From the IMG/VR virus record IMGVR_UViG_3300042261_000720: DNA of 20,000 bases; one strand, 5' to 3'. Below are positions 7,234 through 19,766 of the stretch, piece by piece. Under the pieces are notes generated by a model that worked only from the letters and a program-made list of their open reading frames with translations, was not told where the DNA came from and did not search any database. This DNA comes from an uncultured virus (IMG/VR IMGVR_UViG_3300042261_000720) (Duplodnaviria > Heunggongvirae > Uroviricota > Caudoviricetes). How positions within the stretch are numbered: position 1 is the stretch's first letter; every line of letters begins with the position of its first letter. The position numbers and the translations under genes were made by a program.

Positions 7234-8085
7234 TTACATTATATCAGGAAGATGGTCAAAGCACAAGTAGTCAAGACCATCCTGCAAAGGTATGGATACT
7301 TGGAATCCTAATAAACGTAATTTATTAACATTTAGAGTAAAATTCTTTGCCTGAACTCTTCGATAAAATTCTGGTGTTTCCACAGAAATAATTTCACTCT
7401 TACTAAGAAGCATTTGTTTTGCAAGAAGAATAATCTCACGATAAAGTTCGGGAGATCCTGCACCAATATTATAAATCGAATTTAGTTCTCCCTTGTCCAT
7501 TACTGTTCTAATTGCACGTGACACATCCTCAACGTGCATATAATCCCGATAATACTCACCATTATCATAAAGAGTAATTGGTTTATCTTCCTTAAGAAGA
7601 TTCACCATATGACCCAAAACATTCTTTGTATTTGATTGCGTTTTATCGTGACCGTAAATACTAGCACTACGAATAATGCGATATTTTACATCAAAAGTTT
7701 CACAAAAAGAAACAAGCAATTGTTCTGCTGCTCTTTTTGTGATTGAGTAAAATCCTTTTGGGTCACAAGGATCAGTTTCTTTAGAATCTAAAATATCATT
7801 ACCATATACAAATCCAGTGCTGATGTAATTAAAAACGGTATCCGTGTTCTTACAATACTCAAGAACTTCCATCAAAACATTCAGATTTGTATTAATATCT
7901 AAATGCAAATCATCAAATACGTTGTAATTACTGGTTGTACTTAAAAAATAAACAATGTTATTTGATTGTGGTTGTCTTTCCTCACGAGGAATCACAATTA
8001 CATCATCGGAATAAAGACGAGAAAAAACACTGCCAACGAATCCTGTGCCACCATAAACTGAAATTTTATCAGGCATATTTCTCAC
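7234..8085 (-). CDS. NAD-dependent epimerase/dehydratase (extended SDR, WcaG-like)
   Basis: GGTGFVG, YISTGFVYG, YSITK (YxxxK), RDYMHVEDV, and YNIGAG. Confidence 0.88.
   Translation of the reverse strand: MRNMPDKISVYGGTGFVGSVFSRLYSDDVIVIPREERQPQSNNIVYFLSTTSNYNVFDDLHLDINTNLNVLMEVLEYCKNTDTVFNYISTGFVYGNDILDSKETDPCDPKGFYSITKRAAEQLLVSFCETFDVKYRIIRSASIYGHDKTQSNTKNVLGHMVNLLKEDKPITLYDNGEYYRDYMHVEDVSRAIRTVMDKGELNSIYNIGAGSPELYREIILLAKQMLLSKSEIISVETPEFYRRVQAKNFTLNVNKLRLLGFQVSIPLQDGLDYLCFDHLPDIM
7238..7266 (-). promoter_or_regulatory. sigma70-type internal promoter (extended -10)
   Basis: Minus strand TTGTGC-N17-TATAAT with TGn directly before the -10, about 20 nt upstream of the 7217 start. Confidence 0.5.
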
Positions 8086-8614
8086 AATCTTTTAGAGTTT
8101 TTCCTTCAGCATCTTTTAGAGAAAGAAGAGGTTCACCATCGATCTTCCACTCAATTCCCAGTTCAGGATCATTCCAGAGAAGAGTTCTTTCATTTTCAGG
8201 ACTATACTCATTCGTAACTTTATAAAAAAATTGAGTATCATCTTCCAGAGCAAGAAACCCGTGAGCAAATCCAGGAGGAGTCCACAGAGAAAGGTTATTT
8301 TTATCAGTCAATGTAATCGAAAAATGCTGCCCAAAAGTTTTTGAGGATTGGCGAAGATCAACAATTACATCCTGAACAGCACCGCGAACAATTCTCACAA
8401 GTTTACCTTGTGGTTTTTTAATCTGATAGTGCAAACCTCTTAGTACATTTTTCTTGGAACAAGACAAATTATCCTGATAAAAATCTGCGTGAAAATCAGT
8501 GACTTCACGAAACTTTTTTAGATTAAATGGAACAGAAAAGTATCCTCGATCATCTTTGTATTGATTGATCTCAAAAATCCAAGCGCCACTCAGTTTAGTT
8601 TCTACTGCTTTCAT
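8069..8614 (-). CDS. rmlC: dTDP-4-dehydrorhamnose 3,5-epimerase
   Basis: DDRGYF, QDNLSCS, VLRGLHYQ, QGKLVR, DVIVDLR, and PPGFAHGF. Confidence 0.95.
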   Translation of the reverse strand: MKAVETKLSGAWIFEINQYKDDRGYFSVPFNLKKFREVTDFHADFYQDNLSCSKKNVLRGLHYQIKKPQGKLVRIVRGAVQDVIVDLRQSSKTFGQHFSITLTDKNNLSLWTPPGFAHGFLALEDDTQFFYKVTNEYSPENERTLLWNDPELGIEWKIDGEPLLSLKDAEGKTLKDCEKYA

Positions 8615-9521
8615 ACCACTCAATCGTTTTTCTAAGTCCGTGTTCTAAAGAATACAATGGAGACCAGAACAACGTATCTCTAATCTTTGAGATATCCGTT
8701 GAGTACCTACGGTCGTGTCCTGGTCTGTCCTGAACGTATTCTATCATATCTTCACCCCTACCCATCAAATGTAAGATTTTTTTAACAAGGTCAATATTTC
8801 TGATCTCACACTCACCACCAACATTATACTTCTCACCGCTTATTCCATCTTTCCAAACTTTAATCAATGCAGTGCAATGATCATGAACATACAACCAATC
8901 TCTTACTTGCAGTCCATCACCATATACAGGAATCTTTTTCCCATCTAAGATATTCAGAATTGTTTGTGGAATGAACTTTTCTTTATACTGTCTTGGTCCA
9001 TAATTATTAGAACAATTTGTAATATTGACTGGCAACCCGTGAGTATGATGATATGCCATTACAAAATGATCACTTGCTGCTTTAGATGCAGAATATGGAT
9101 TTCTTGGATTATAGATTGTGTTTTCAGTAAAAGATCCATAATCTATAGATCCATAAACCTCATCAGTCGAGATGTGAATAAACTTATCCACTCCATACTT
9201 AAGAGCAAGGTTTAAAATATTTACTGTCCCATTAACATTTGTATGAACAAATGGAAGAGAATCTTTGATCGAATTATCTACGTGACTTTCTGCAGCAAAG
9301 TGAAAAATAGTTTTAATTTTGTGCCTGGAAAAAATATAATCGCAAGCAGACTTGGAAGCAATATCTATTGTATAAAGTTTAACAGGATTTGGAATATAGT
9401 GCCAGTCTGCCGCATAAGTAAGTTTATCAATACAAACTATTTCTTCGTCAGTAACTTTAACTAGATGATGGAGAAAATTGCTTCCGATAAATCCTGCCCC
9501 ACCCGTGACTAATATGCTCAT
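8595..9521 (-). CDS. rmlB: dTDP-glucose 4,6-dehydratase
   Basis: TGGAGFIGSN, DKLTYA, HFAAESHVDNSI, HISTDEVYG, PYSASKA, CSNNYGP, RDWLYV, and DRPGHDRRY. Confidence 0.96.
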   Translation of the reverse strand: MSILVTGGAGFIGSNFLHHLVKVTDEEIVCIDKLTYAADWHYIPNPVKLYTIDIASKSACDYIFSRHKIKTIFHFAAESHVDNSIKDSLPFVHTNVNGTVNILNLALKYGVDKFIHISTDEVYGSIDYGSFTENTIYNPRNPYSASKAASDHFVMAYHHTHGLPVNITNCSNNYGPRQYKEKFIPQTILNILDGKKIPVYGDGLQVRDWLYVHDHCTALIKVWKDGISGEKYNVGGECEIRNIDLVKKILHLMGRGEDMIEYVQDRPGHDRRYSTDISKIRDTLFWSPLYSLEHGLRKTIEWYESSRN

Positions 9522-10009
9522 TTTTGACCGTACTTTTCTAAAAGTTCTGGAGAATACTGTAGAATATCTTTGATGTCTTTTTCTTCTCTTTTTGCTTTCT
9601 CAAGTTCGTAAACTCTATTTCTAAGTTCTGTAGTTGAGTATTGGTGTCTTCTCAAATGGTAATAGATTTCGATATCATTATCAATACAATACTGTTTACC
9701 AGTAAAATCAATATCTTTATATTCTTCACTCAAAAATCTAATATGAAAAGTCTGAGTTTTGATTAGATTGAGAAGATCTGCTTCCGTATCATAAACAAGA
9801 ATCTCATCCACATATTTACACCCCTGCACTTGAGCATATCTCTCATAAATGGATTGCACTGGTTTATTTTTTAAACTAGGTCTATCAATTGTCGGATCGA
9901 CCTGAAGTGCTACTTTTAAATAGTCACACATCTCTTTTTCCATCTTGAGCATTGTAACGTGCCCAGCATGAAAAAGATCAAAGCAACTACAATTAAAACC
10001 GATCTTCAT
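9518..10009 (-). CDS. cytidylyltransferase-like nucleotidyltransferase (TagD/glycerol-3-phosphate CT family)
   Basis: FDLFHAGH (HxGH), ER..V..CKYVDE, and R.H.YSTT motifs. Confidence 0.85.
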   Translation of the reverse strand: MKIGFNCSCFDLFHAGHVTMLKMEKEMCDYLKVALQVDPTIDRPSLKNKPVQSIYERYAQVQGCKYVDEILVYDTEADLLNLIKTQTFHIRFLSEEYKDIDFTGKQYCIDNDIEIYYHLRRHQYSTTELRNRVYELEKAKREEKDIKDILQYSPELLEKYGQK

Positions 10010-10029
10010 ATTAAAAGTACTTTTTTTAT

Positions 10030-10058
10030 ATTATACTAAAAAAGGACGGTTTATGCAA
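10030..10058 (-). promoter_or_regulatory. sigma70 promoter for the sugar island
   Basis: Minus strand TTGCAT-N17-TATAAT; overlaps the terminator hairpin. Confidence 0.75.
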
Positions 10059-10064
10059 CCGTCC
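10038..10064 (-). terminator. intrinsic terminator
   Basis: GGACGGTT-gcata-AACCGTCC followed by TTTTTT on the minus strand. Confidence 0.8.
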
Positions 10065-10069
10065 AAACT

Positions 10070-10222
10070 CAGTTTATGCAGGCTCGCCACTTGCTCTTTG
10101 ACCAGAAGCAAGAAACTGGGCGGGAGAGAGTCCCATCCGCACCACTTGCTTTTTAATGGGAAAGCAAGAAACCATAAGGGGTCATTTGACTCCACCACTT
10201 GGTTTTACGAAACCAAGAAAAG
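10070..10222 (-). ncRNA. manA/wcaG-like cyanophage structured RNA, 3' part (three tandem stem modules)
   Basis: Three copies of TTTCTTG(G/C)TT-loop-A(A/G)(C/G)CAAG-TGG-type stems with compensatory changes, plus GCGGATGGGA..TCCCGCC and TGGCGAGCC segments. Lies upstream of sugar genes. Family match is from memory. Confidence 0.7.
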
Positions 10223-10432
10223 TTGGATTAACTTTGATATCTCGGTAATACCAAAGAATGCTATCAAAAATAGCACATCCCAGAGTTTGAGTTTGATGGC
10301 AAATGGAATACCGAGTAAACCCCCGATAAACTTAATTGCTAGACCAAACTTAAAGTTTCCCCATAACATAACTTGATAACCAAGCATTAGGAGAAAGTTC
10401 CCAAGATACCTCAGGATACTAGATTTAGACAT
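10205..10432 (-). CDS. small 3-TM membrane protein embedded in the structured RNA
   Basis: 75-aa hydrophobic ORF; its stop codon lies in the loop of the first RNA module. Confidence 0.75.
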   Translation of the reverse strand: MSKSSILRYLGNFLLMLGYQVMLWGNFKFGLAIKFIGGLLGIPFAIKLKLWDVLFLIAFFGITEISKLIQLFLVS

Positions 10433-10478
10433 AAGGGGTTTGCTCCCGACCAGTGCTGTTAACGTCCATCCGTGACGA
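10433..10478 (-). ncRNA. manA-like RNA 5' segment
   Basis: GC-rich GTCACGGATGGACGTTAACAGCACTGGTCGGGAGCAAACCCC resembles my recollection of the manA RNA 5' end. Confidence 0.55.
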
Positions 10479-10736
10479 CTAATCCCAAAATTCTTCAGTG
10501 CCTTTTACATAACAAGGAACACGATCTGGATCTAACCATTTCGCATATTCGATATCTTCCATTGCAGTAGAACATTGTAGCACATTATCAAAAAGATAAA
10601 TGTCATTCCATCGTTTTGTGTAATAATTTTGTTTTTGCAAGCGATAATCGGGTTTACCGTTTATCTCAAGAATACCCGCTTCTACAAAACGGTATCCTTC
10701 ACGCTCTAACAAAACTTTTGGAAGTTTCGTAATCAT
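10479..10736 (-). CDS. hypothetical phage protein
   Basis: 85-aa ORF with ATGA coupling to the upstream gene. Confidence 0.75.
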   Translation of the reverse strand: MITKLPKVLLEREGYRFVEAGILEINGKPDYRLQKQNYYTKRWNDIYLFDNVLQCSTAMEDIEYAKWLDPDRVPCYVKGTEEFWD

Positions 10737-10970: not shown

Positions 10971-10999
10971 ATTATAAGGTGTTTAGACTTGTGTGTCAA
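10971..10999 (-). promoter_or_regulatory. consensus sigma70 promoter
   Basis: TTGACA-N17-TATAAT, a perfect match. Confidence 0.88.
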
Positions 11000-11023: not shown

Positions 11024-11094
11024 TCGGGGCGGCAAGAATCGAACTTGCACCTCCGCTTCCCAAAAGCGGCATTCTACCACTATACTACGCCCCG
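11024..11094 (-). tRNA. tRNA-Pro(UGG)
   Basis: Cloverleaf CGGGGCG...CGCCCCG-A; anticodon arm CCGCT-TTTGGGA-AGCGG; T-loop TTCGATT; no encoded CCA. Confidence 0.95.
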
Positions 11095-11128
11095 TTGCGT
11101 TGAGTGGTCTTGCCTCCCAACAGAACTA

Positions 11129-11157
11129 ATTATACTACTTCTTGTGCCCCCTGTCAA
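11129..11157 (-). promoter_or_regulatory. consensus sigma70 promoter for tRNA-Pro
   Basis: TTGACA-N17-TATAAT. Confidence 0.88.
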
Positions 11158-11287
11158 ACGGAGCCCAGTGCTGCCAGTTGTATTTGTGAATTGCCCAGAT
11201 ACCCATAATAGGCAGAACAATCAAAATGTATCCAAGAAATCCAAGTGTATAAGGATTCTCCAATACCCATCGTGCGAAGTGTCCCAT
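11135..11287 (-). CDS. 50-aa single-TM hypothetical protein
   Basis: Manual translation MGHFARWVLENPYTLGFLGYILIVLPIMGIWAIHKYNWQHWAPFDRGHKK; TGATG coupling with the upstream ORF. Confidence 0.7.
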   Translation of the reverse strand: MGHFARWVLENPYTLGFLGYILIVLPIMGIWAIHKYNWQHWAPFDRGHKK

Positions 11288-11484
11288 CAGTATCCTCTCC
11301 AGGTCTTAAATTCATAATAAAAATACTGGTCAAGAACTTTATCATCTAATGGAGCATCATCAGTTCTGTGTGCCCATACCTCACAAAACTCTACAATACG
11401 ACGGTCGTGTAATGAACTGTGCCCCCACATTCTTACAAACGCTGATGCCGCAAAAGAATATCGTTGCTTAATGTGCGGTTCCAT
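11287..11484 (-). CDS. hypothetical protein
   Basis: MEPHIKQRYSFAASAF...FKTWRGY; part of the coupled micro-ORF chain. Confidence 0.7.
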   Translation of the reverse strand: MEPHIKQRYSFAASAFVRMWGHSSLHDRRIVEFCEVWAHRTDDAPLDDKVLDQYFYYEFKTWRGY

Positions 11485-11590
11485 TGCCTTTGTAGTCCTC
11501 TGAGTCATAATACCCTCCTCGTGTTCCGAAGTACAGTGTTGCTAAAACAAAAGGAATTGAAACAAATAAAAGTGCTTTTGCTAATAACAT
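11468..11590 (-). CDS. ndhP: NDH-1 small subunit NdhP-like
   Basis: Manual translation MLLAKALLFVSIPFVLATLYFGTRGGYYDSEDYKGNGTAH; TM helix plus the FGTxxGxYDxxxYxGNGxAH signature of NdhP; TGATG-coupled to PTOX. Confidence 0.85.
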   Translation of the reverse strand: MLLAKALLFVSIPFVLATLYFGTRGGYYDSEDYKGNGTAH

Positions 11591-12090
11591 CAGACCATCT
11601 CCATTGCTCGTTCTAGTTCTATGTAATGATTCATTTCATCTGTGGCAATCTCACCGATCTTGGCGTCTTCTGGATGGTCCCAGAAGTAATCTAGGTAAGT
11701 TTCTGTTGCGTGAAACTCAATACCTGAGTTCAGGTGATAAGCAGAAACAGGACCAACAAAATAGTAAACAACCATACTCCAATAATAGACGAGAACCAGA
11801 TGATAAGCAAAAAAGCGATCAATCCAGCGGTCTGCTCCACCACGCGACTCCATTTCTCTGAGGTGTTCGGTTTCATTGATTGTCTGTGCGAAGTGTTCTT
11901 TCATTAAGTAATAGTGTTCTTCTGTTCGGAGACCTAGTGATTCTCTGAGATGAAGAACACTGAGAAAAGCGAAGTAGGGTGCTCTGGCAATTGTTTCTAG
12001 CACCCAGAAGCGTTGTATAGGTAGATCACGGTAAAGGAAGTCAATGATGGCTACCGTGATTGATAGAACTACATCATTGAACTTTTTCAT
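11590..12090 (-). CDS. ptox: plastoquinol terminal oxidase (PTOX, alternative oxidase family)
   Basis: RFWVLETIARAPYFAFLSVLH, NETEHL, EFHATETY and DEMNH di-iron ligands. Confidence 0.95.
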   Translation of the reverse strand: MKKFNDVVLSITVAIIDFLYRDLPIQRFWVLETIARAPYFAFLSVLHLRESLGLRTEEHYYLMKEHFAQTINETEHLREMESRGGADRWIDRFFAYHLVLVYYWSMVVYYFVGPVSAYHLNSGIEFHATETYLDYFWDHPEDAKIGEIATDEMNHYIELERAMEMV

Positions 12091-12254
12091 AGGAATACTC
12101 CTGGTTGATAGTTTACCAACTTCTGCAGTTCATCAAGAATTGCACCATATTCTCTAAACTTTCTATCACCAGCAATGTAATGTCTTTGTCTTACCCATAC
12201 TGCATCTGCTAGAAGTTTTAATTCGTATTCAGAAAATTCGTTAAATCGTTCCAT
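12087..12254 (-). CDS. 55-aa hypothetical protein
   Basis: MERFNEFSEYELKLLADAVWVRQRHYIAGDRKFREYGAILDEL...; GAGG ribosome-binding site; ATGA overlap with PTOX. Confidence 0.7.
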   Translation of the reverse strand: MERFNEFSEYELKLLADAVWVRQRHYIAGDRKFREYGAILDELQKLVNYQPGVFL

Positions 12255-12262
12255 AATACCTC

Positions 12263-12508
12263 TTATGTTGGTAATACAATCTGTTCCCTTGCTCCACTGT
12301 TAAGAAGTGGCGCTTTCAATACTTCCCATTTCAAATACACAACAGTATCTACCATCCACCAAAAAGCAATAGTACATAAGAAAATAGTAAGAACTGTTGA
12401 TGCAGTACTCAATACAAGACTGAACTTCTTTGCTTTAAAATGGTTGATAACTCCAAGTGCCATAATCAACAATAATACTTCATACGTTATAAAATTATAG
12501 TAAGTCAT
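12263..12508 (-). CDS. small 2-TM hypothetical membrane protein
   Basis: 81-aa hydrophobic ORF with ATGA overlap. Confidence 0.65.
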   Translation of the reverse strand: MTYYNFITYEVLLLIMALGVINHFKAKKFSLVLSTASTVLTIFLCTIAFWWMVDTVVYLKWEVLKAPLLNSGAREQIVLPT

Positions 12509-12594
12509 TGTGGATATGCGTGTGTAAGACCCCAGTAAATAAAGGTTCCAATCGCACTGAAAAGTAAAATTGACGATATGAATGTTTTAGTCAT
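12505..12594 (-). CDS. NdhQ-like single-TM peptide (29 aa)
   Basis: MTKTFISSILLFSAIGTFIYWGLTHAYPQ aligns without gaps to the recalled TM and C-terminus of cyanobacterial NdhQ (IS..L....I...IxWxLxxAY); overlaps both neighbours. Confidence 0.6.
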   Translation of the reverse strand: MTKTFISSILLFSAIGTFIYWGLTHAYPQ

Positions 12595-12700
12595 TTTCTT
12601 CGTCCTCATAAGTAGATGGTTCTTCAAATAACTCATCCATTTTTTGTCTTAAAACTATTTCTCGTAATTCTTGTAAGTCTTCTTCTGTGATCGTTATCAT
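12587..12700 (-). CDS. 37-aa acidic hypothetical protein
   Basis: MITITEEDLQELREIVLRQKMDELFEEPSTYEDEEND; ATGA overlap. Confidence 0.65.
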   Translation of the reverse strand: MITITEEDLQELREIVLRQKMDELFEEPSTYEDEEND

Positions 12701-12876
12701 TTGTCCTTGAGTAGTTCTTCTATTCTTTTACGCATCGTTGTGCTATCTTGTTTCATATAGTCACGTAAAGAATAACCACGTTGATTTCTCAGTATACAAG
12801 TTCCTTGATAGAACATAGTCGCAGCAAATACCAACAATAGGACGATGCCTATTATTTCAGGGTAATGTTGAGCCAT
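12697..12876 (-). CDS. 59-aa single-TM hypothetical protein
   Basis: MAQHYPEIIGIVLLLVFAATMFYQG...MRKRIEELLKDK. Confidence 0.65.
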   Translation of the reverse strand: MAQHYPEIIGIVLLLVFAATMFYQGTCILRNQRGYSLRDYMKQDSTTMRKRIEELLKDK

Positions 12877-13055
12877 GGTAGTAATGGTGGAATAACGCCA
12901 ACCAATCTTAAAAGTCCCTCAGCAAATAAAGAAAGAACCACCCAACCGACGCACATACTAATGATAGAAGCATTACGGTTGTGTCGTCGTATTGCTGCAT
13001 CGATCATCTCCTGAACTTCGGCACGACTTACTAATTCGTCTTGTGGTTCCATCAC
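12852..13055 (-). CDS. 67-aa membrane hypothetical protein
   Basis: ORF track; EMIDAAIRRHNRNASIISM followed by a TM segment. Confidence 0.7.
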   Translation of the reverse strand: MMEPQDELVSRAEVQEMIDAAIRRHNRNASIISMCVGWVVLSLFAEGLLRLVGVIPPLLPWLNITLK

Positions 13056-13201
13056 TTCTCGTCTCCAAGAAACTTTGCCAGAGGATCTCTTCTGGTCTTA
13101 GCGATTTCCACTGCTCTTTTGTAAAACATATTGTCTGTATTTCCAGACTGTTCGAAAGTCTCCTTGATCTTCACCCAATTATCGTAGGTGTGCTGATCCA
13201 T
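13052..13201 (-). CDS. 49-aa conserved cyanophage/picocyanobacterial-type hypothetical protein
   Basis: MDQHTYDNWVKIKETFEQSGNTDNMFYKRAVEIAKTRRDPLAKFLGDEK; first gene after a promoter. Confidence 0.72.
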   Translation of the reverse strand: MDQHTYDNWVKIKETFEQSGNTDNMFYKRAVEIAKTRRDPLAKFLGDEK

Positions 13202-13227
13202 AGGGTTATGAGTAAGTATACTACTAT

Positions 13228-13255
13228 ATAATAATTTTTCTTTTTACAGTGTCAA
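13228..13255 (-). promoter_or_regulatory. probable sigma70 promoter of the micro-ORF/PTOX operon
   Basis: TTGACA-N16-TATTAT. Confidence 0.5.
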
Positions 13256-13317
13256 GTTATTGTGTTGATATCAAAAAAGTGTTTAAGAAAATCTTAAATT
13301 ATGTAATATTTGTAACA

Positions 13318-13403
13318 AGGAAGATCAGGGATTCGAACCCTGGAACGCTATTAACGTTAATAGTTTTCAAGACTATCGCCATCAACCACTCGGCCAATCT
13401 TCC
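13318..13403 (-). tRNA. tRNA-Ser(UGA)
   Basis: GGAAGAT...ATCTTCC; anticodon arm ATAGT-CTTGAAA-ACTAT; long variable arm; T-loop TTCGAAT. Confidence 0.95.
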
Positions 13404-13408
13404 ATTTG

Positions 13409-13443
13409 TGGTATAATATACTGTACTTATTTAATTTTGTCAA
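13409..13443. promoter_or_regulatory. overlapping oppositely oriented promoters
   Basis: Minus: TTGACA(13443-13438)-N17-TATATT toward tRNA-Ser. Plus: extended -10 TGgTATAAT (13409-13417) toward the plus-strand genes. Confidence 0.6.
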
Positions 13444-14052
13444 GTGCGTATAAAACCACCACCAAAAAGACTTGAGTTTGAAAAACTTTTAAGAGATCTT
13501 GGTTATAGAGATAGGTCACCCATTTATTTTGAAGAGAGAGTAACTAAGCAAATTAATTATGTTTTGCCTAGTGGAAAAGCAATGGGGTTTTATAACACCA
13601 TTGTACCATATTACAATAAAAAATCATATCTCTATACTGAATTTTATCAAAGTTATCACGAACCAGATATTAAAAGACGTATTTCAACACTTGCTGAAAA
13701 CATTCTTTTTAATGAAAAAAGAAGAATTGGCGAAGTATATTGGAAAGTTGTTTATACAAATGACCCAACTGAGTTTACTCTAGAAGAAAGGAGAGCAATC
13801 TTTGGATATTTTATTAAAGATGTAAAAAATTGGTTTACAAATGGATTTGTAAAGTTCGAACCAAGAGAGGGGGATATGTTAGTCTCAAATCCATATGGTC
13901 CAAAAATTAATAAAGGATTCACTAGCGAATCAATGGATGAAGGAACAAAGCAAAGAGCATTATGGAATAAAAGACTTGGATTTGGAGATCTAAAATTAGA
14001 TGGTTTTTGCTATGCAAGATATGACCAAGATTTAAAATTACGCCCACTATGA
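13444..14052 (+). CDS. hypothetical protein, paralogue A
   Basis: 202-aa ORF with GTG start, clearly homologous to the next ORF. Confidence 0.8.
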   Translation: MRIKPPPKRLEFEKLLRDLGYRDRSPIYFEERVTKQINYVLPSGKAMGFYNTIVPYYNKKSYLYTEFYQSYHEPDIKRRISTLAENILFNEKRRIGEVYWKVVYTNDPTEFTLEERRAIFGYFIKDVKNWFTNGFVKFEPREGDMLVSNPYGPKINKGFTSESMDEGTKQRALWNKRLGFGDLKLDGFCYARYDQDLKLRPL

Positions 14053-14669
14053 GTAAAATATATCCACCAAAAGCAAGAATAGAGTTTGAGAAATTGATTG
14101 TTAAACTTGGATATAGAGATCGATCTCCTATTTGCTTAAAAACAAAAAGAGAAACAACAAAAATTGGAAAAGAATGCTTTCCAATATCAATTAACTACAT
14201 AGAATTTTTTGCTGTTCATTACAAAAATAAAAAAAGTTATGCTTATGAACAATATCTAATTGATAGAAAATTTTTATCTAAAAAAGACATCATTAAAAAA
14301 TACAAATACTTATTAAACAAAATAAAATTTGGTGAAGGAAGAATAAGTGAAATTGGTTGGCAAATAATGTGGGATAGAAACCCAGTATTACTTACGCCAA
14401 ATCAACATAAAAAAATTCTCTATAGAATTATTAGAGAATTAAAAGATATGAGAGATAATAGAAAATATTTTACTACAGCATACCCACAACAAATATTAGT
14501 CAGCAAACCTTGGGGAAATCAATTATATAATCCAATTGATTCCAAAGACAATTTTGATTTAGTAAGAAAAAGATCTTTAATGAATTCAAAATTTGGTTTT
14601 GGAAACTTAGACGAATACGGACACGAGTATGCTATGTTTGATGATACTCTTTACCTAAATCCTATCTAA
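14049..14669 (+). CDS. hypothetical protein, paralogue B
   Basis: 206-aa ORF, ATGA-coupled; shares PP..R.EFEKL...LGYRDRSPI, LVS.P.G and GFG.L...G..YA..D..L.L.P with paralogue A. Confidence 0.8.
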   Translation: MSKIYPPKARIEFEKLIVKLGYRDRSPICLKTKRETTKIGKECFPISINYIEFFAVHYKNKKSYAYEQYLIDRKFLSKKDIIKKYKYLLNKIKFGEGRISEIGWQIMWDRNPVLLTPNQHKKILYRIIRELKDMRDNRKYFTTAYPQQILVSKPWGNQLYNPIDSKDNFDLVRKRSLMNSKFGFGNLDEYGHEYAMFDDTLYLNPI

Positions 14670-14919
14670 TCTCAAAATCTAACTTTCTAACCTTACGTTG
14701 CCTTCTCGCTTCTTGATAAGCGAGATCATCGTTTGTTAAAACACCAGTTTTACTTTTTGCTTTTGGTGCATTTAACATAATAACTTGCCCCAAATCAAGT
14801 GCTGAAATAACACCATTACGAATGGTCGCCATATTAGGACATCCGCAAGACACTGTTTTTCCAGAAATGCCCTCTAACTCGTTACCACAGGAACGGCATC
14901 TGATTCTTAAGTTTTCCAT
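14662..14919 (-). CDS. Zn-ribbon hypothetical protein
   Basis: CRSC...CGCPN motif; C-terminal RRQRKVRKLDFEIR. Confidence 0.75.
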   Translation of the reverse strand: MENLRIRCRSCGNELEGISGKTVSCGCPNMATIRNGVISALDLGQVIMLNAPKAKSKTGVLTNDDLAYQEARRQRKVRKLDFEIR

Positions 14920-14950
14920 TACTCATTACCTTAACGAAATCAATAATTGT

Positions 14951-15523
14951 TTATTGTGTTGGTTGCTCTTCTGCGGGAACTTCTTGCTCTACAGGTTGCG
15001 CTGGAACTTCATCGGTTTCCTCGACTTGAGGAACTGCTTTTTCACTAAACGATCTTAGCATCCAAACAAACTTACCGTGAGATTCCATCAGGTCCTGAAG
15101 AAGATTTGCAGTTGCTAACGTTCTTTGTGCTTCTGCTTCTTCTGCAGCGTTTGTAAGAAGTTCTATTAAAATCTCATTATCATTTAAAAGTTGTTTGATC
15201 ATCTCAGTTCCTTTGGAAAGAGGTTTTCCTAAGGTTACCATTTTTTGTCCATTTTCATCATAAGAAACAATATTTGTTCCTTCACCAATAGTGGAAACTT
15301 CTACAATTCTACTGAGTGTTCCAACAGGACGAACATTTAAATATCTCATATGTTCGGAGAGACGATCAATCTCTTCGAACATTGCTTCATATTGATTACC
15401 AAAAACTTCGTGGAACTGATGGAAATCAGGACCTACAACGTTCCAGTGGTAAACCCAAGTTTTATGAAACAGAAGAAATAAATTCGCCTGAACATCACTT
15501 AGAAGTTTAAAAAGTCTTTCCAT
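14951..15523 (-). CDS. dps: Dps / DNA starvation protection ferritin-like protein
   Basis: KTWVYHWNVVGPDFHQFHEVF, EEIDRLSEHMR, and HGKFVWMLRS. Confidence 0.92.
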   Translation of the reverse strand: MERLFKLLSDVQANLFLLFHKTWVYHWNVVGPDFHQFHEVFGNQYEAMFEEIDRLSEHMRYLNVRPVGTLSRIVEVSTIGEGTNIVSYDENGQKMVTLGKPLSKGTEMIKQLLNDNEILIELLTNAAEEAEAQRTLATANLLQDLMESHGKFVWMLRSFSEKAVPQVEETDEVPAQPVEQEVPAEEQPTQ

Positions 15524-15540
15524 TATACCAGTTTTTTAGG

Positions 15541-15548
15541 TATTTATA
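15541..15548 (-). promoter_or_regulatory. T4-type late promoter
   Basis: TATAAATA 17 nt upstream of the dps start. Confidence 0.75.
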
Positions 15549-15551
15549 AAG

Positions 15552-15623
15552 TGGGCGATGACGGATTCGAACCGCCGACCAATTGCGTGTAAAGCAACTG
15601 CGCTACCGCTGCGCTAATCGCCC
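15552..15623 (-). tRNA. tRNA-Val(UAC)
   Basis: GGGCGAT...ATCGCCC-A; anticodon loop TTTACAC; T-loop TTCGAAT. Confidence 0.95.
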
Positions 15624-15629
15624 GCAAAA

Positions 15630-15794
15630 TTAATGCTTTTGCATAATGTATTCTACAGTATTTGCTACATCATTCATAGCATCTCGCAAGTCAGTTTGTT
15701 GTCCAGACTCTTGACGAATTACTGGACGGTGATCATCAGTCAGTGTCCACCGCCAGAGATTCATATCTTTACAATGCCAGAGATTAATTTTCAT
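15630..15794 (-). CDS. 54-aa hypothetical protein
   Basis: Manual translation MKINLWHCKDMNLWRWTLTDDHRPVIRQESGQQTDLRDAMNDVANTVEYIMQKH. Confidence 0.72.
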   Translation of the reverse strand: MKINLWHCKDMNLWRWTLTDDHRPVIRQESGQQTDLRDAMNDVANTVEYIMQKH

Positions 15795-15996
15795 TCTTAA
15801 AGTACTCCAAACGAACCCAGTTGAGAAGTGTATTTAACTCATACAACTCTTGCTTGTATGTATGATACTCTGGGTAGTTTGGATCGTCAACTAGTTGCGA
15901 ATCTTCAATAAAAGATATTTCACTCTTTAGAAAATCAGCATAATGCTCAAAGGCAGTAATGGCAAGTTGCCTGTCTAGTTGCGAAAGAAGAGACAT
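15784..15996 (-). CDS. hypothetical protein
   Basis: 70-aa ORF with a strong AGGAGG ribosome-binding site and an upstream promoter. Confidence 0.8.
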   Translation of the reverse strand: MSLLSQLDRQLAITAFEHYADFLKSEISFIEDSQLVDDPNYPEYHTYKQELYELNTLLNWVRLEYFKNEN

Positions 15997-16017
15997 AAAC
16001 CTCCTGACTCGTTACTT

Positions 16018-16046
16018 ATAATACACTAAAAAAGGGGTTGTGTCAA
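16018..16046 (-). promoter_or_regulatory. sigma70 promoter overlapping the pstS terminator
   Basis: TTGACA-N17-TATTAT. Confidence 0.75.
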
Positions 16047-16052
16047 CCCCCT
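16028..16052 (-). terminator. intrinsic terminator after pstS
   Basis: GGGGTTG-aca-CAACCCC followed by TTTTTT. Confidence 0.8.
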
Positions 16053-16058
16053 TATGTA

Positions 16059-17036
16059 TCACTTCTCGCCCAGACCGATTTGTTGGACTTTCAGACGGGA
16101 ACGATTCAGAATAGAACCAGCAAGAGGAACATAACCCAGATCATCAGCAATCGACTGTGCCTTGGTACTTAAAGCATAGTTAATAGCATCACGAACTGCT
16201 TGTGCCTTACCAGGAGCATAACCATTCTTATAAGCAAGAATCCAGGTTAGGGTGGAAATAGGATAGGCACGAGCACCTGATGGGTTAGGATCTTCACCAG
16301 CAAGAGTCACGGGGTCCAGTTTGATGCCATTCAGGGCAGCAGCACCAGTCACAGCAGAAGGTCCAACGAACTTACCTGCCTTGTTTTGGAGCACAGCAGC
16401 TTGGAGTTTGTTAGCACGAACAAATCCAGTGTTCAGATAACCGATACCACCAGGAGTGTTGGAAAGAGTTCCAGCAACACCTTCGTTACCTTTGGCACCA
16501 ACACCAGTAGGCCAGTTGATTGACTTACCAACACCAGCAGTCCAACCACCAAAAGCATCCAGAGAGTTGGTGAATGCGTAAGTGGTTCCAGAACCATCAG
16601 AACGATGAACAACTCGCATAGAACCAGCGGCACAACCAACTTGCTTCCAGTCCTTGATGCGACCAGCGAAAATATCAACAACTTGTTTCTGAGTCAGTTT
16701 CAGTTTACAACCAGGTTTGTTATAAGCAACAGCAATCGTGCCACCAACCATAGGAATCTGAACGACACCACGCTTGACCTTTGCTGCTTCCTTTGCCTTG
16801 ATAGGTTCATCAGAAGCACCGAAGTCAACGGTTCCAGCAACAAACTGGCGAATACCAGCACCAGAACCAACGGACTGGTAGTTTACTTTTTCACCAGTGG
16901 TAGATGAATAATCAACGAACCAACGCTGATAGATGGGTGCGGGGAATGTAGCACCAGCACCATTAATAGCAGGTCCAGCAAATGCAGCGGTAGGGGCAAG
17001 AGCAAGACCGATTGTAGCAATGTGTTTGAGTTTCAT
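16059..17036 (-). CDS. pstS: phosphate ABC transporter substrate-binding protein
   Basis: Signal peptide; GAGATFPAP, YQSVGSGAG, DFGASD, HRSDGSGTT, GKGNEGV-like and YPISTLTW motifs. Confidence 0.97.
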   Translation of the reverse strand: MKLKHIATIGLALAPTAAFAGPAINGAGATFPAPIYQRWFVDYSSTTGEKVNYQSVGSGAGIRQFVAGTVDFGASDEPIKAKEAAKVKRGVVQIPMVGGTIAVAYNKPGCKLKLTQKQVVDIFAGRIKDWKQVGCAAGSMRVVHRSDGSGTTYAFTNSLDAFGGWTAGVGKSINWPTGVGAKGNEGVAGTLSNTPGGIGYLNTGFVRANKLQAAVLQNKAGKFVGPSAVTGAAALNGIKLDPVTLAGEDPNPSGARAYPISTLTWILAYKNGYAPGKAQAVRDAINYALSTKAQSIADDLGYVPLAGSILNRSRLKVQQIGLGEK

Positions 17037-17044
17037 TGTAGTTA

Positions 17045-17063
17045 ACGTTAAGAAGAGGTTAAT
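17045..17063 (-). promoter_or_regulatory. Pho-box-like tandem repeat upstream of pstS
   Basis: ATTAACCT-ctt-CTTAACGT with 11-bp period, matching the cyanobacterial YTTAAYYW consensus. Confidence 0.55.
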
Positions 17064-17077
17064 TGAGTTCTAACACC

Positions 17078-17102
17078 AAAAAACCTCCCCGAAAGGAGGT
17101 TT
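17078..17102 (-). terminator. intrinsic terminator after the porin gene
   Basis: ACCTCCT-TTCG-GGGAGGT followed by a T-tract. Confidence 0.85.
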
Positions 17103-17121
17103 AGAGGTATCGTAGATATTA

Positions 17122-18624
17122 TCAGAAACGGAAGGTCGTCTGAATCACACCACCATAGTTGTCCGAAGCATTCTTGAGCCCTTGATTGTTGGACACATAG
17201 AATACAGCAGGAGTCACGCTGATAGCATCGCTAACCTTGTAACGATAGAAGGCTTCCCACATAATCGCTTTGCGATCAGCAGCAAGAGAAGCAGCATTAC
17301 CAGGAGCACCGATGGCAAAACCAGCAGCATTACCCTTCACAAACACATCGCTCCACTGAAGACCCGTCATCCACGTTTGTGAATCGGTAGCGCCAGTAGG
17401 AGTCTGACGGTTGTTGGACAAACTTACGGTGTTCCAACCATAAGCACCACTCACAGAAGGAATGATACCCGACTTCTTGGGTTGCCAGTATGCGTTGATC
17501 GCATAACCATTGGAGGTTTGGTTAGCACCAAGAGCACCAGAACCACCACCGATAGCATTGAAGTTACGGACACGGGTTCCTTCGGTGCCGTAGCGGTAAC
17601 CGAAAGCAATACCATACTGAGGGGCACGATAACCAATCTGAGCAAGAGTGTTCAGAGAACCATCTTCATCAAACTGACCTTTGGTAGAATCGTTTCCGTT
17701 CTGAGCAACATAGTTGATGCCAGCAACGAAACCAGGCTTACCCTTCTTGGTAGGTTGTACCCACTGAGCACCGAAACCAGAACCAGTTGCCTTGTTATAA
17801 ACACCAGGAGCACCAGCAACGGAGAAGAAGTCCAGAATGTCCGACTTGTATGCGGTAGGAACCCAAGCCATCTCAGTGTTACGAACCAGAGCACCAGCAG
17901 TCAGGGTCACACCCTTAGCAAGTCCAGGGAAGCTGTAGTACAGACGATCCAGAGTCACAGTGTTCGCATAGGTTTCTGCCTTGTCCAGTTTGAACAGGGA
18001 GGAAGAGGAACCGAAAGGTTGCGAGGAGAAGTTACCAGAACGCAGACGGGTCTTGAGCAGATCCTTACCAGTGAAGGAAGTATCAAAGCTCAGGCGGAGG
18101 TCATAGTTGAAAGCAGTGTTTCCAACATTGGTGCTGTTAGCAAGACGAGCACCATCTACACCACCCAGAACGAAGGTTGCTTCACCCTTGAGTTTGGTAG
18201 TGGTAGAGAATTGTTGTGCCTGAAGAGCAGCGGTTTGCTTCTCCAGTTTAGCAACACGACCACGAAGAACTTGAAGTTCATTAGCGAACTCGGTAGCAAG
18301 ACGCTGGAGTTCATCGGTGACTTCAGTTACGCGATCCAGGCAAGCATTCAGAAGTGCTGCTGCCTCAAAACGGGTCATTGCCTTACCACCAAGATAAGTT
18401 CCGTTTTCATAACCAGCAACGCAACCATAACGCTCAACAAGATTGCTGAGTGCCTGATAAGCCCAATCAGTAGGTTGGACATCAGAAAGTTGTTTGATGC
18501 TTGAGACCTGCTCAGAAGAAGTGTATTGGTTGACTGCTGCCATATTAAGGTCTGCGGCATTCGCAGCAACAGGAGCAACCATTCCCAGAGCAACAGGTGC
18601 GAGCATCAGTTGTTTGAGTTTCAT
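17122..18624 (-). CDS. cyanobacterial outer-membrane porin (Som / SLH + OprB-type beta-barrel)
   Basis: Signal peptide; SLH-like SDVQPTDWAYQAL..LVERYGCVAGY and TRFEAAALLNACL; coiled coil; QFSTTTKL; TSFTGKDLL.TRL; C-terminal TTFRF. Confidence 0.95.
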   Translation of the reverse strand: MKLKQLMLAPVALGMVAPVAANAADLNMAAVNQYTSSEQVSSIKQLSDVQPTDWAYQALSNLVERYGCVAGYENGTYLGGKAMTRFEAAALLNACLDRVTEVTDELQRLATEFANELQVLRGRVAKLEKQTAALQAQQFSTTTKLKGEATFVLGGVDGARLANSTNVGNTAFNYDLRLSFDTSFTGKDLLKTRLRSGNFSSQPFGSSSSLFKLDKAETYANTVTLDRLYYSFPGLAKGVTLTAGALVRNTEMAWVPTAYKSDILDFFSVAGAPGVYNKATGSGFGAQWVQPTKKGKPGFVAGINYVAQNGNDSTKGQFDEDGSLNTLAQIGYRAPQYGIAFGYRYGTEGTRVRNFNAIGGGSGALGANQTSNGYAINAYWQPKKSGIIPSVSGAYGWNTVSLSNNRQTPTGATDSQTWMTGLQWSDVFVKGNAAGFAIGAPGNAASLAADRKAIMWEAFYRYKVSDAISVTPAVFYVSNNQGLKNASDNYGGVIQTTFRF

Positions 18625-18686
18625 AAAAATGTTTTATGTACTATAGGACAATTAAGGTTTTTTAGATAAACCTTGGTATATAGAGG

Positions 18687-18780
18687 TGCTTAACCAAATC
18701 TTAAGAGATGATTAAGTTAACGGTATCATAGCATAACCGTATCAGTTATGTCAATTAAGATACGGTTAAGACTTTTTAAG
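18687..18780 (-). promoter_or_regulatory. porin promoter with two arrays of Pho-box-like repeats
   Basis: TTGACA(18754-18749)-N18-TATGAT with TGn. Upstream CTTAAAAA/CTTAACCG/CTTAATTG; downstream CTTAATCA/CTTAAGAT/GTTAAGCA at exact 11-bp period. Confidence 0.6.
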
Positions 18781-18852
18781 AGCGGAGTATCGGATTTGAA
18801 CCGACGACATCTAACTTGGAAGGATAGCGTTCTACCACTGAACTAACTCCGC
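18781..18852 (-). tRNA. tRNA-Gly(UCC)
   Basis: GCGGAGT...ACTCCGC-T; anticodon loop CTTCCAA; T-loop TTCAAAT. Confidence 0.95.
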
Positions 18853-18854
18853 AA

Positions 18855-18906
18855 TGGTGGGGATTTACCCAGCCTCAGGTTTCCCTTCACAGGCACGGAA
18901 CCCCAC
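18855..18906 (-). ncRNA. putative small structured RNA with a kink-turn
   Basis: Outer stem GTGGGG/CCCCAC enclosing GCC-TGT-GA-AGG-GAAA-CCT-GA-GGC; ends ACCA. Confidence 0.55.
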
Positions 18907-18932
18907 GCACTTCACTTCACACGGACTTGAGA

Positions 18933-18961
18933 AGTATATGACATAATAACTATTATGTCAA
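18933..18961 (-). promoter_or_regulatory. sigma70 promoter with a palindromic spacer
   Basis: TTGACA-N17-TATACT; 18939-18960 is the perfect inverted repeat TGACATAATA-gt-TATTATGTCA. Confidence 0.8.
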
Positions 18962-18962
18962 G

Positions 18963-19034
18963 AGCCCCCGACAAGATTTGAACTTGCGACCAGCGGTTTA
19001 CAAAACCGCTGCTCTACCACTGAGCTACAAGGGC
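18963..19034 (-). tRNA. tRNA-Thr(UGU)
   Basis: GCCCTTG...CGGGGGC-T; anticodon arm GCGGT-TTTGTAA-ACCGC. Confidence 0.95.
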
Positions 19035-19324
19035 GAAACAGAAGGTTTATGATAAGAAGTAAGACCAGCGTGTAATTCTCTATGACAATTAGCACAAAGC
19101 ATATAACACTTGTCTGCTTCTTTTTTCTGCTTTTCTAAAGATTTTGTAGAACCAGAAATTTGAAACTCTTTTGTGTTTTCATTAATGTGATGAAACTCTA
19201 ATGCTTCAATACATTTATCATAACCACAAAATTCACACTTCCCGCCTTTATATTCAACAAGAAGTTCTTTTGTTCTTTTTCTCCAATTACCTACATTTTT
19301 CTTTAGTTTTTCTTGGTCTCTCAT
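19025..19324 (-). CDS. free-standing HNH endonuclease (putative homing endonuclease)
   Basis: GGKCEFCGY...LEFHH...KC.MLCANCHRELH: a Zn-binding HNH signature. Confidence 0.9.
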   Translation of the reverse strand: MRDQEKLKKNVGNWRKRTKELLVEYKGGKCEFCGYDKCIEALEFHHINENTKEFQISGSTKSLEKQKKEADKCYMLCANCHRELHAGLTSYHKPSVSPL

Positions 19325-19327
19325 AGT

Positions 19328-19357
19328 GATTAACTTAATATGTTAATCTTATTTATA
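19328..19357 (-). promoter_or_regulatory. T4 late promoter plus translation-initiation hairpin for the HNH gene
   Basis: TATAAATA (19357-19350) followed by the GATTAAC-N7-GTTAATC hairpin ending 3 nt before the ATG. Confidence 0.7.
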
Positions 19358-19364
19358 AGACCAA

Positions 19365-19437
19365 CTCCCCGAGTAGGGCACGATCCTACAACCTCAGTGT
19401 TAACAGCACTTTGCTCTACCAATTGAGCTATCGGGGA
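19365..19437 (-). tRNA. tRNA-Asn(GUU) with an atypical T-loop
   Basis: TCCCCGA...TCGGGGA-G; anticodon loop CTGTTAA; T-arm GTAGG-ATCGTGC-CCTAC. Confidence 0.88.
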
Positions 19438-19441
19438 ATAG

Positions 19442-19524
19442 TGGTAGGAGGGATTTCTATGTGCGGACAGAATCACCTTTCACATCATCCAGTCTAAACC
19501 AGCGAGAGGTGTTGCACTTCCTAC
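19442..19524 (-). ncRNA. putative ~83-nt structured RNA ending in ACCA
   Basis: Terminal stem GTAGGA/TCCTAC with nested GTGC/GCAC and CACCT/AGGTG stems. Confidence 0.45.
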
Positions 19525-19527
19525 ATT

Positions 19528-19584
19528 TGATGGAGCAAGTGTGATATACCTCATAAGGATATAACAGTGACTTACTCTCTATCA
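19528..19584 (-). ncRNA. long imperfect hairpin RNA candidate
   Basis: TGAT..GAGTAAGT..TGTTATATCCT-TATG-AGGTATATCA..ACTTGCTC.ATCA. Confidence 0.45.
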
Positions 19585-19613
19585 TTTTTATATATGGAGA
19601 ATAAATCTCCAAG

Positions 19614-19687
19614 CGTCTCAGGCTGGATTCGAACCAGCGACCGACCGCTTAGAAGGCGGTTGCTCTGTTCCACTGAGCTACTGAGAC
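19614..19687 (-). tRNA. tRNA-Arg(UCU)
   Basis: GTCTCAG...CTGAGAC-G; anticodon arm ACCGC-CTTCTAA-GCGGT; T-loop TTCGAAT. Confidence 0.95.
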
Positions 19688-19691
19688 AAGA

Positions 19692-19766
19692 GACCTCCCT
19701 GTTTGTGCTTCTATGAGAGGCATGGGAGGGGCAGGACTTACACGGAGTTTGGACCCCCGCCGCCTA
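19692..19766 (-). ncRNA. GC-rich two-hairpin leader RNA candidate
   Basis: GGCGG-CGGGG..CTCCG..CCTGCC followed by CCTCCC...GGGAGG, between the promoter and tRNA-Arg. Confidence 0.4.

Follow-up and report, generated by a model that had tools for sequence, protein, structure and literature searches.

A cyanophage wcaG RNA locus with four modules and a small hydrophobic-protein gene nested among them

In 2010 the wcaG motif, known from marine samples and cyanophages, was proposed as a candidate riboswitch that precedes exopolysaccharide and high-light genes (Weinberg et al. 2010, PMC2864571). It has been an orphan candidate since then, and cyanophage genome papers still annotate it as a cis-regulator of exopolysaccharide genes of ∼97 nucleotides (nt). 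The manA motif is also a cyanophage and marine orphan described in the same 2010 paper, and no more than about 400 nt separate the two motifs in phage S-CREM1 (Table 4, PMC9964418). Here we analyze a 20,000-nt stretch of DNA from an uncultured virus (IMG/VR IMGVR_UViG_3300042261_000720; the whole stretch is referred to as the window), in which an array of RNA hairpins containing a wcaG motif lies on the minus strand at approximately 10,070 to 10,478 and encloses an open reading frame (ORF) of 75 codons, ORF75. The window is a segment of a T4-like cyanophage with its genes on the minus strand. Cyanophages or marine viruses account for all 222 phage records that match coordinates 9900-10700, and likewise for all 80 of a second set of phage-record matches; IMG/VR loci match too. 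We conclude that the locus very probably represents the wcaG RNA of cyanophages in its common form of four modules, and that the gene for a small membrane protein nested within it is genuine.

The Rfam covariance model for wcaG (RF01761; 98 nt, gathering score 42 bits) matches the window at 10176-10076 (minus strand) with 100.8 bits, covering model positions 1-98 of 98. The core consists of two TTTC-stem-GTGG hairpins around a TGCGGATGGG...CCCGCC hairpin, as in wcaG, and it contains the pseudoknot between the 5' flank and the 3' hairpin loop that is drawn in a figure file of the 2010 paper (PMC2864571), formed here by CCAG at 10119-10116 and CTGG at 10105-10102. A preliminary description of this DNA had labelled the element manA/wcaG-like; the wcaG half of the label is correct and the manA half is not supported, as the manA model (RF01745) gives no match at its gathering score in the 20-kb window, nor any at expectation values (E) up to 10 within 9900-10700.

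The Rfam match covers only the last two modules of the array. We define a module as a hairpin ending in ...TGG together with its directly adjoining connector, itself a short hairpin with G-rich and C-rich strands, and assigned modules with a regular-expression parser of our own. Hairpins of type A have the form TTTC, stem, loop, stem, GTGG; those of type A' have a 4-bp stem, a 7-nt NYGGRNN loop and an A-rich tail ending in CTGG; and the rarer type A'' has a long loop. Connector B1 has the form TGCGGATGGG...CCCGCC, B2 is TGGAGTCA...GACCC, B3 is TCGGGA...CCCC, B4 is ...CCCCTTCCGTGTGG..., and the terminal connector Bf is either CGAGCCTG or CGTGCATG. In the window the order is A'-B3, ORF75, A-B2, A-B1, A-Bf, which is also the modal form of the array, and all of these features lie on the minus strand.

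Module 1 (10477-10433) is outside the Rfam model. Its A' hairpin (10450..10477) pairs CGTC at 10477-10474 with GACG at 10466-10463 around the 7-nt loop ACGGATG, with a tail ending in CTGG, and its B3 connector (TCGGGAGCAAACCCC) with a TT linker occupies 10433..10449 and places GGGAG 10 nt upstream of the ORF75 ATG. Module 2 (10220-10172) is likewise outside the model, and begins with the type A hairpin H0 (10195..10220), composed of TTTC, the stem CTTGGTT/AACCAAG (10217-10211 with 10204-10198) and TGG. Connector B2 (TGGAGTCAAATGACCCC) and its linker TTATGG follow at 10172..10194, the linker's ATGG (10175-10172) being the 5' strand of the first pseudoknot; B2 is not represented in the Rfam model, yet it is conserved in phages S-SRM01, S-SZBM1, S-SKS1 and S-CAM7 and in many IMG/VR loci. 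Module 3 (10171-10116) falls within the model, with the type A hairpin H1 at 10142..10171 (stem 10168-10162 with 10151-10145), whose loop CCAT (10159-10156) pairs with ATGG, and connector B1 (TGCGGATGGG...CCCGCC; 10116..10141), a nearly invariant core whose CCAG (10119-10116) is the 5' strand of the second pseudoknot. Module 4 (10115-10079) comprises the type A hairpin H2 (10087..10115; stem 10112-10107 with 10095-10090), whose loop CTGG pairs with CCAG, and the terminal connector Bf (CGAGCCTG; 10079..10086). The stems of H0, H1 and H2 are all preceded by TTT and followed by TGG.

The three stems at 10220-10195, 10171-10142 and 10115-10087 thus lie where the preliminary description placed them, and the second and third of its units correspond to the Rfam match. 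Its count of three tandem units falls one short, because the 4-bp hairpin at 10477-10463 covaries over 87 copies and belongs to a fourth module. The 10-mer ACCCCTTATG that it reported twice is indeed present at both 10439-10430 and 10182-10173. At a permissive threshold the wcaG model also gives a match of 20.5 bits (E 0.24) in which the hairpin at 10220-10195 aligns to the model's 3' hairpin. Similarly, in an IMG/VR locus without an ORF (L120) the B1 core gives one full match to the model and the upstream pair reaches just 22.3 bits (E 0.98); upstream module pairs thus score only 20-22 bits with the current model. The tandem nature of wcaG is implicit in the published data, because the 2010 seed alignment already holds A'-B3-A and A-B2-A triads and adjacent matches on single scaffolds (PMC2864571).

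The modules fold at the RNA level on the minus strand. Comparisons were made across loci obtained by scanning IMG/VR with an exact pattern for the invariant B1 core, which matched at least 120 loci; these 120, the window and three phage loci make up 124 sequences, from which five false positives of high G+C content and the duplicates were removed to leave 110 non-redundant cyanophage loci. All counts over the 110 loci, and over subsets of 95, 81 and 76, therefore refer to the IMG/VR matches listed together with the window and the phage loci. In 76 aligned core arrays, 97.4% of the cells at paired positions hold standard pairs, compared to 33-53% when the partners are slid out of register, and the observed covariation score was reached by none of 500 shuffles. 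Compensatory changes are present at six of seven H1 pairs, five of six H2 pairs and two of the four pairs of the H2 pseudoknot, where 97.7% of the cells are paired. Of 57 distinct modules, 53 have an H2 flank that matches its own loop over 4 bp or more (permutation mean 23.8, maximum 32), and the flank of H1 does so in 48 of 82 (mean 32.3, maximum 44 over 1000 permutations), so that both of the pseudoknots claimed to covary exceed every permutation. The corresponding own-loop pseudoknot at H0 is matched by just two of 29 modules.

The A' hairpin of module 1 shows the same kind of signal. Among 87 distinct copies, in which the window's CGTC/GACG is included, 250 of 261 stem cells are paired, compared to a shuffle mean of 214 that in none of 1000 shuffles rises to the observed value, and there are UA/AU and AU/CG exchanges; variants of the A' loop and tail correlate, with no one pairing scheme being fixed. 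The stems contain 80 G-U pairs and one A-C pair, and a single alignment column holds UA 48 times and UG 23 times; because G-U far exceeds A-C, the fold belongs to the minus strand. In the core alignment B1 and the junction nucleotides are nearly invariant. The 197-nt array folds at -65 kcal/mol, with a z-score of -4.35.

Four modules is the usual form of the array. Counting across any interposed ORFs, we find one module in two loci, two in 18, three in 19, four in 67 and five in four, such that the two hairpins of the Rfam model are surpassed in 90 of the 110 loci. Restricting the count to loci that look complete again gives four as the most frequent number (58 of 81). Modules follow a preferred order of B3 or B2, then B1, sometimes B4, and then Bf. 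S-SRM01 has the layout of the window including the ORF, S-SZBM1 lacks the ORF and joins the 5' segment straight to three TTTC...GTGG hairpins, S-SKS1 has only a TGGAGTCA...GACCC hairpin before the Rfam core, and in S-CAM7 four hairpin units come after the ORF. Seven loci carry the order A'-B3, A-B2, A-B1, A-Bf without any ORF. The modular picture with varying content therefore holds, with one to five modules and gaps that are empty or occupied by one of five ORF families; the wcaG model matches the locus, and where the ORF is missing, as in L120 and S-SZBM1, the 5' segment abuts the 3' modules. The array occurs at a single locus per genome and is not a dispersed boundary element. A per-genome search of four complete phage genomes and the window's nearest record found one wcaG locus above the cut-off in each, and the A' pattern zero times or once per record (in three of the five); in S-CAM7 a second match below threshold (26.7 bits) adjoins the first.

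ORF75 (10205..10432) occupies the gap between modules 1 and 2, and its presence there as a 75-codon frame with its TAA (10207-10205) in the H0 loop is just as first reported. It encodes a small hydrophobic protein that matches phrog_2318 (E 2.8e-20), has homologues by tblastn in 250 phage records, and shows a median ratio of non-synonymous to synonymous substitution rates (dN/dS) of 0.155 over 159 pairs. By these sequence measures ORF75 is a genuine gene. It has no Pfam match at E up to 0.01, and DUF6552, which is on 18-58% of the members of look-alike clusters, is a mere lead from the Atlas. ORF75 is present in 28 of the 110 loci, and in all 21 of those with enough upstream sequence it lies between module 1 and module 2, preceded by an A'-B3 module; this module ends in CCCCTTATG, the ATG of which initiates ORF75. 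The hairpin that follows is type A in 19 of these loci and A' in two, and is then followed by B2, and the last 2-9 residues of the protein vary with the type of this hairpin (...QLFLVS, ...QLTFPSLSVN or ...QLYISPGTT). The RNA supplies ORF75 with its initiation codon, the AUG of the linker that follows B3, and also with its final codons and stop, which lie within H0.

Several further observations concern the boundaries and annotation of ORF75. In several loci, among them L080, L020 and L073, ORF75 can be extended in frame by 12-14 codons to an ATG in the A' loop (ACGGATGGAC), and in L070 an in-frame ATG elsewhere in the A' hairpin region gives an extension of 12-14 codons; in the window the A'-loop ATG reaches a stop after three codons. 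In S-SRM01 (L001) a deposited coding sequence at 1976-2182 runs across the wcaG RNA, and the ORF75 homologue at 1707-1958 is unannotated. A 107-codon antisense ORF at 10053-10376 on the plus strand overlaps both the array and ORF75, and is probably spurious because it is the ORF75 strand that is under purifying selection.

ORF75 is not the only gene found in the array. At least one ORF lies between modules in 35 of the 110 loci, belonging either to ORF75 or to four other families, and in two loci ORF75 and a second ORF are present together. All of the insertions are between a connector and the next hairpin, and never between a hairpin and its own connector. Family F2 (64-70 residues, eight loci) separates the A-B1 module from a preceding B2 or B3, F3 (62-80 residues, five loci) separates it from B2, and F4 (two loci) lies between A'-B2 and A'-B3. 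The fifth, F5, is a single 113-residue cupin of the mannose-6-phosphate-isomerase type (PF01050, E 1.5e-26) located between A-B2 and A'-B1 (L059:743-1081, minus strand), and is a sugar-metabolism gene inside the RNA array. Distant members of the ORF75 family sit between the sliding-clamp and clamp-loader genes, and those loci have no wcaG match at E up to 0.1. We did not find a near-identical pair of loci differing only by the ORF; the best ORF-plus/ORF-minus pair has flank identities of 0.77 and 0.86.

The array ends, as noted previously, at a terminator just upstream of the sugar genes. This apparent composite of terminator and promoter (10030..10064) has the stem GGACGG/CCGTCC in a stem-loop at 10064-10044 and a T-run at 10043-10038, with a putative -35 hexamer, TTGCAT (10058-10053), in the terminator loop and a 17-nt spacer to a -10 hexamer, TATAAT (10035-10030), that matches the consensus at six of six positions; other loci have TTGACA or TTTACA as the -35. 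The first sugar gene begins with an ATG at 10009, and the sugar-nucleotide genes extend over 7234..10009, encoding a cytidylyltransferase-like protein, a dehydratase, a dTDP-4-dehydrorhamnose 3,5-epimerase and an epimerase/reductase-like protein. A terminator follows the last module in 82 of the 95 evaluable arrays, and of the 13 that lack it, six continue into tRNA genes. Terminator stems differ freely among loci and are set 13-48 nt downstream of the conserved Bf. A -10-like TAnnnT is located 1-3 nt after the T-run in 63 of the 95, a -35-like hexamer is present within the terminator 15-19 nt (commonly 17) upstream of the -10 in 60, and a long ORF begins 9-67 nt (median 20) after the -10 in 39 of 40 loci with enough sequence. 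Because the -10-like hexamer follows the T-run and an ORF shortly afterwards, the downstream genes appear to have their own promoter, and the array appears to form the 3' end of the early operon that precedes it and not a switch in a 5' untranslated region (UTR).

Upstream, a consensus scan predicts a sigma-70 promoter at 10971..10999 (TTGACA, 17 nt, TATAAT; 12 of 12 consensus matches), which is likely the start of a short operon ending in the RNA array. Between this promoter and module 1 is an 85-codon gene (10479..10736; phrog_481) of a family annotated as 'similar to gp206' in S-SKS1 and S-IOM18, whose TAG (10481-10479) lies 1 nt 5' of module 1; homologues are upstream on the same strand in 54 of the 110 loci. 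Neither a Pfam family nor a match among PDB sequences was found for the 85-residue protein, its structural model (predicted local distance difference test score, pLDDT, 74) has a four-strand sheet and two helices, and the fold search was uninformative (best Foldseek E 0.22; best VIA Z 5.3, within background). Relatives' contigs from two RNA libraries skip this gene almost exactly (joint 10474 to 10733), and because one contig has an A' hairpin in its place, the gene is also optional beside module 1.

We propose an early operon of ∼0.95 kb that starts at the promoter at 10999-10971 and stops at the terminator at 10064-10038, with the array being transcribed as its intercistronic and terminal portions; the sugar genes would be driven by their own promoter built into the terminator. 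Given this proposed operon-tail position and the separate promoter of the sugar genes, the RNA would act on the transcript that contains it, or else as a stable RNA produced from that transcript, rather than switching downstream genes from a 5' UTR. A factor may recognize the invariant B1 core and the pseudoknots, setting the 3'-end fate or the stability of the transcript. ORFs would come and go because insertions and deletions would be tolerated only in the linkers, and short repeats at module junctions may help. Taken as a whole, this explanation (a four-module wcaG RNA with a nested gene and a function at the operon tail) has in our estimation an even chance of being correct, and a 3'-terminal cis-acting function of the array, as read from the sequence, is put forward tentatively and could well prove wrong.

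Several observations weigh against this account. No candidate binding protein was found, and the near-invariance of B1 and the junction nucleotides is what a ligand-binding aptamer would show. The -35 in the window matches TTGACA at only three of six positions, and the promoter scan of the tool we used did not list this promoter. The A' hairpin is absent from the minimum-free-energy fold, and because the 5' segment alone folds poorly (z +1.47) the support for its fold is comparative. The parser consists of regular expressions and not a covariance model and makes some errors, such as an over-call in L033. Because the loci were chosen with an exact B1 pattern among the matches listed, the module statistics are biased toward B1-bearing arrays. 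Arrays without the Rfam core do exist and are missed by such a survey: cyanophage ACG-2014f (L005, 801-1075) has ORF75 followed by a single terminal module without a B1 core, and scores 30.7 bits with wcaG, below the cut-off. Lastly, the transcript data consist only of metatranscriptome Logan contigs of relatives, which cannot show starts, ends or strand and may contain DNA. These contigs, with shares of 0.05-0.14 of sampled words, include some that bridge the end of ORF75, H0, B2 and H1. Together they cover the 'similar to gp206' gene, ORF75 and the array, with 10010-10050 nearly bare and the sugar gene thin; since depth and gaps cannot rank genes or show ends, we draw nothing from them beyond the bridging.

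The alternative with the longest history is that of a classical riboswitch, in which a metabolite bound by the B1-centred core would determine whether transcription passes the terminator at 10064-10038 and enters the sugar genes, the upstream modules being accessory or duplicated parts of the aptamer. The 2010 listing as a candidate (PMC2864571), the near-invariance of B1 and the junctions, the terminator that follows most arrays, and the sugar genes directly downstream are all as this would predict. However, the -10-like hexamer after the T-run, with the next ORF a median of 20 nt further on, would let those genes be transcribed independently, and inspection reveals no conserved alternative pairing between the array and terminator stems that vary both in sequence and in distance. 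Moreover, some arrays run into tRNA genes or have no terminator, the number and type of modules vary, and the RNA can contain ORFs of 60-113 codons. We therefore regard a riboswitch as unlikely.

Two other possibilities are both a little less probable. In the first, wcaG would be the core of a single-locus RNA of four to five modules whose linkers are docking slots for small genes, an RNA-defined gene-cassette array whose RNA is a stable product engaging a host factor. Phages would load ORF75, F2, F3, F4 or the cupin into one structured early transcript, and the flanking modules would supply start context, stop, protection or processing for each cistron. In the second, the modules would be recognized or cut by a protein of host or phage, such as a ribonuclease, with cleavage freeing monocistronic mRNAs and a stable, protein-titrating RNA. 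A repeated unit of variable number with conserved single-stranded flanks (TTTC, and GTGG followed by T or C), hairpins positioned exactly at ORF ends with connectors before ORF starts, and a location among tRNA genes, which are themselves processed, would suit such a processing array. On the other hand, no candidate protein was found, the adjacent 85-residue protein having no informative fold match. The modules also differ from one another and keep a preferred order, and a single multi-domain RNA thus fits better than equivalent repeats.

A DNA-level cassette system, in which the modules are recombination sites akin to PeSL repeats or integron attC sites and serve mainly in the capture and shuffling of small ORFs, is very unlikely. 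It does account for five ORF families in the gaps of 35 loci with identical arrays that are empty, for short junction repeats such as the two copies of ACCCCTTATG, and for the relatives' contigs that delete exactly the 'similar to gp206' gene; moreover, PeSL elements are reported to mediate insertions and deletions in hyperplastic regions of T4-like phages (PMC4122927, PMC2839356). But the covariation of the pseudoknots and the excess of G-U over A-C suggest selection on a single-stranded fold of the minus strand, for which double-stranded recombination sites have no need. ORF75 is always in the same gap, the modules are not identical repeats around each ORF, there is one locus per genome, and no pair reflecting a recent gain or loss was found. 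The interpretation offered in the preliminary description is partly supported: the structure that it described stands, and the three functions that it suggested (recombination boundary, processing or stability element, dual-function RNA) are candidates.

The notion that the core is coding sequence for a peptide can be dismissed almost entirely, for although a 33-codon frame (10175-10074) does begin at the second ACCCCTTATG copy and run through modules 3 and 4 as reported, an in-frame ATG is present in only 15 of 76 arrays and the frame is open in only seven, and the substitutions are compensatory stem changes that would freely alter the peptide. We therefore reject the frame as incidental, and with it the translation-coupled role that had been suggested.

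Other features of the window lie beyond the proposed operon. Seven tRNA genes (Pro, Ser, Val, Gly, Thr, Asn and Arg) are located at 11024-19687 on the same (minus) strand as the array, and a perfect sigma-70 promoter match is present at 11157-11129 just upstream of tRNA-Pro. An Rfam abiF RNA match (19693-19729, minus strand; 44.8 bits against a gathering score of 37) lies upstream of tRNA-Arg (19687-19613), with 5 nt between its end and the tRNA gene; the S-CREM1 paper also reports abiF close to wcaG and manA in that phage (PMC9964418). A 166-codon ORF at 11590-12090 (minus strand) matches the alternative oxidase family (PF01786, E 5.3e-13), and is an auxiliary gene resembling plastoquinol terminal oxidase.

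What is new here is that four modules is the usual form of wcaG, that ORFs are nested between the modules, and that a terminator and putative promoter intervene before the sugar genes; we found no mention of tandem arrays, nested ORFs or an intervening promoter in the 2010 wcaG description or in the main text of later papers. A usual form of four modules, ORFs that do not disturb it, and a separating terminator and putative promoter change which experiments make sense: the full array and not the 98-nt core is the proper object for probing, a 3'-terminal or processed RNA is to be considered, and the natural ORF-plus and ORF-minus variants are ready-made controls. The Rfam model under-describes the wcaG family, and small phage genes evidently can borrow their start and stop signals from structured RNA.

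The closest described system is the wcaG motif itself, of which modules 3 and 4 are a full-length, high-scoring member with the same pseudoknot and the same T4-like cyanophage hosts; the locus differs in having four modules, a protein gene between modules 1 and 2, and a terminator and putative promoter before the sugar genes. In dual-function RNAs such as SgrS/SgrT and RNAIII/hld, one transcript contains both a structured RNA and a small-protein ORF, and the array similarly combines the two: ORF75 is embedded in structured RNA, is under purifying selection, and has covarying flanking modules in all 21 loci examined. However, the ORF is optional and absent from most arrays, and the ORF75 family also occurs elsewhere without the RNA. 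The REP/BIME elements of enterobacteria are mosaic intergenic hairpin arrays dispersed in hundreds of copies; they resemble this array in being mosaics of a few hairpin types and linkers, variable in number, at the 3' ends of cistrons, whereas the array is confined to a single locus and has pseudoknots and long invariant single-stranded stretches. PeSL elements share with the locus a stem-loop terminator, here at the 3' boundary and fused to a putative early-type promoter, and a setting of small variable ORFs and tRNA genes with insertions and deletions, but they are described as present in many copies per genome flanking ORFs, whereas only the final element has that form here (PMC2839356, PMC4122927); the word 'cyanophage' does not occur in PMC4122927. 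The modules of this array, by contrast, are pseudoknotted RNA units at one locus.

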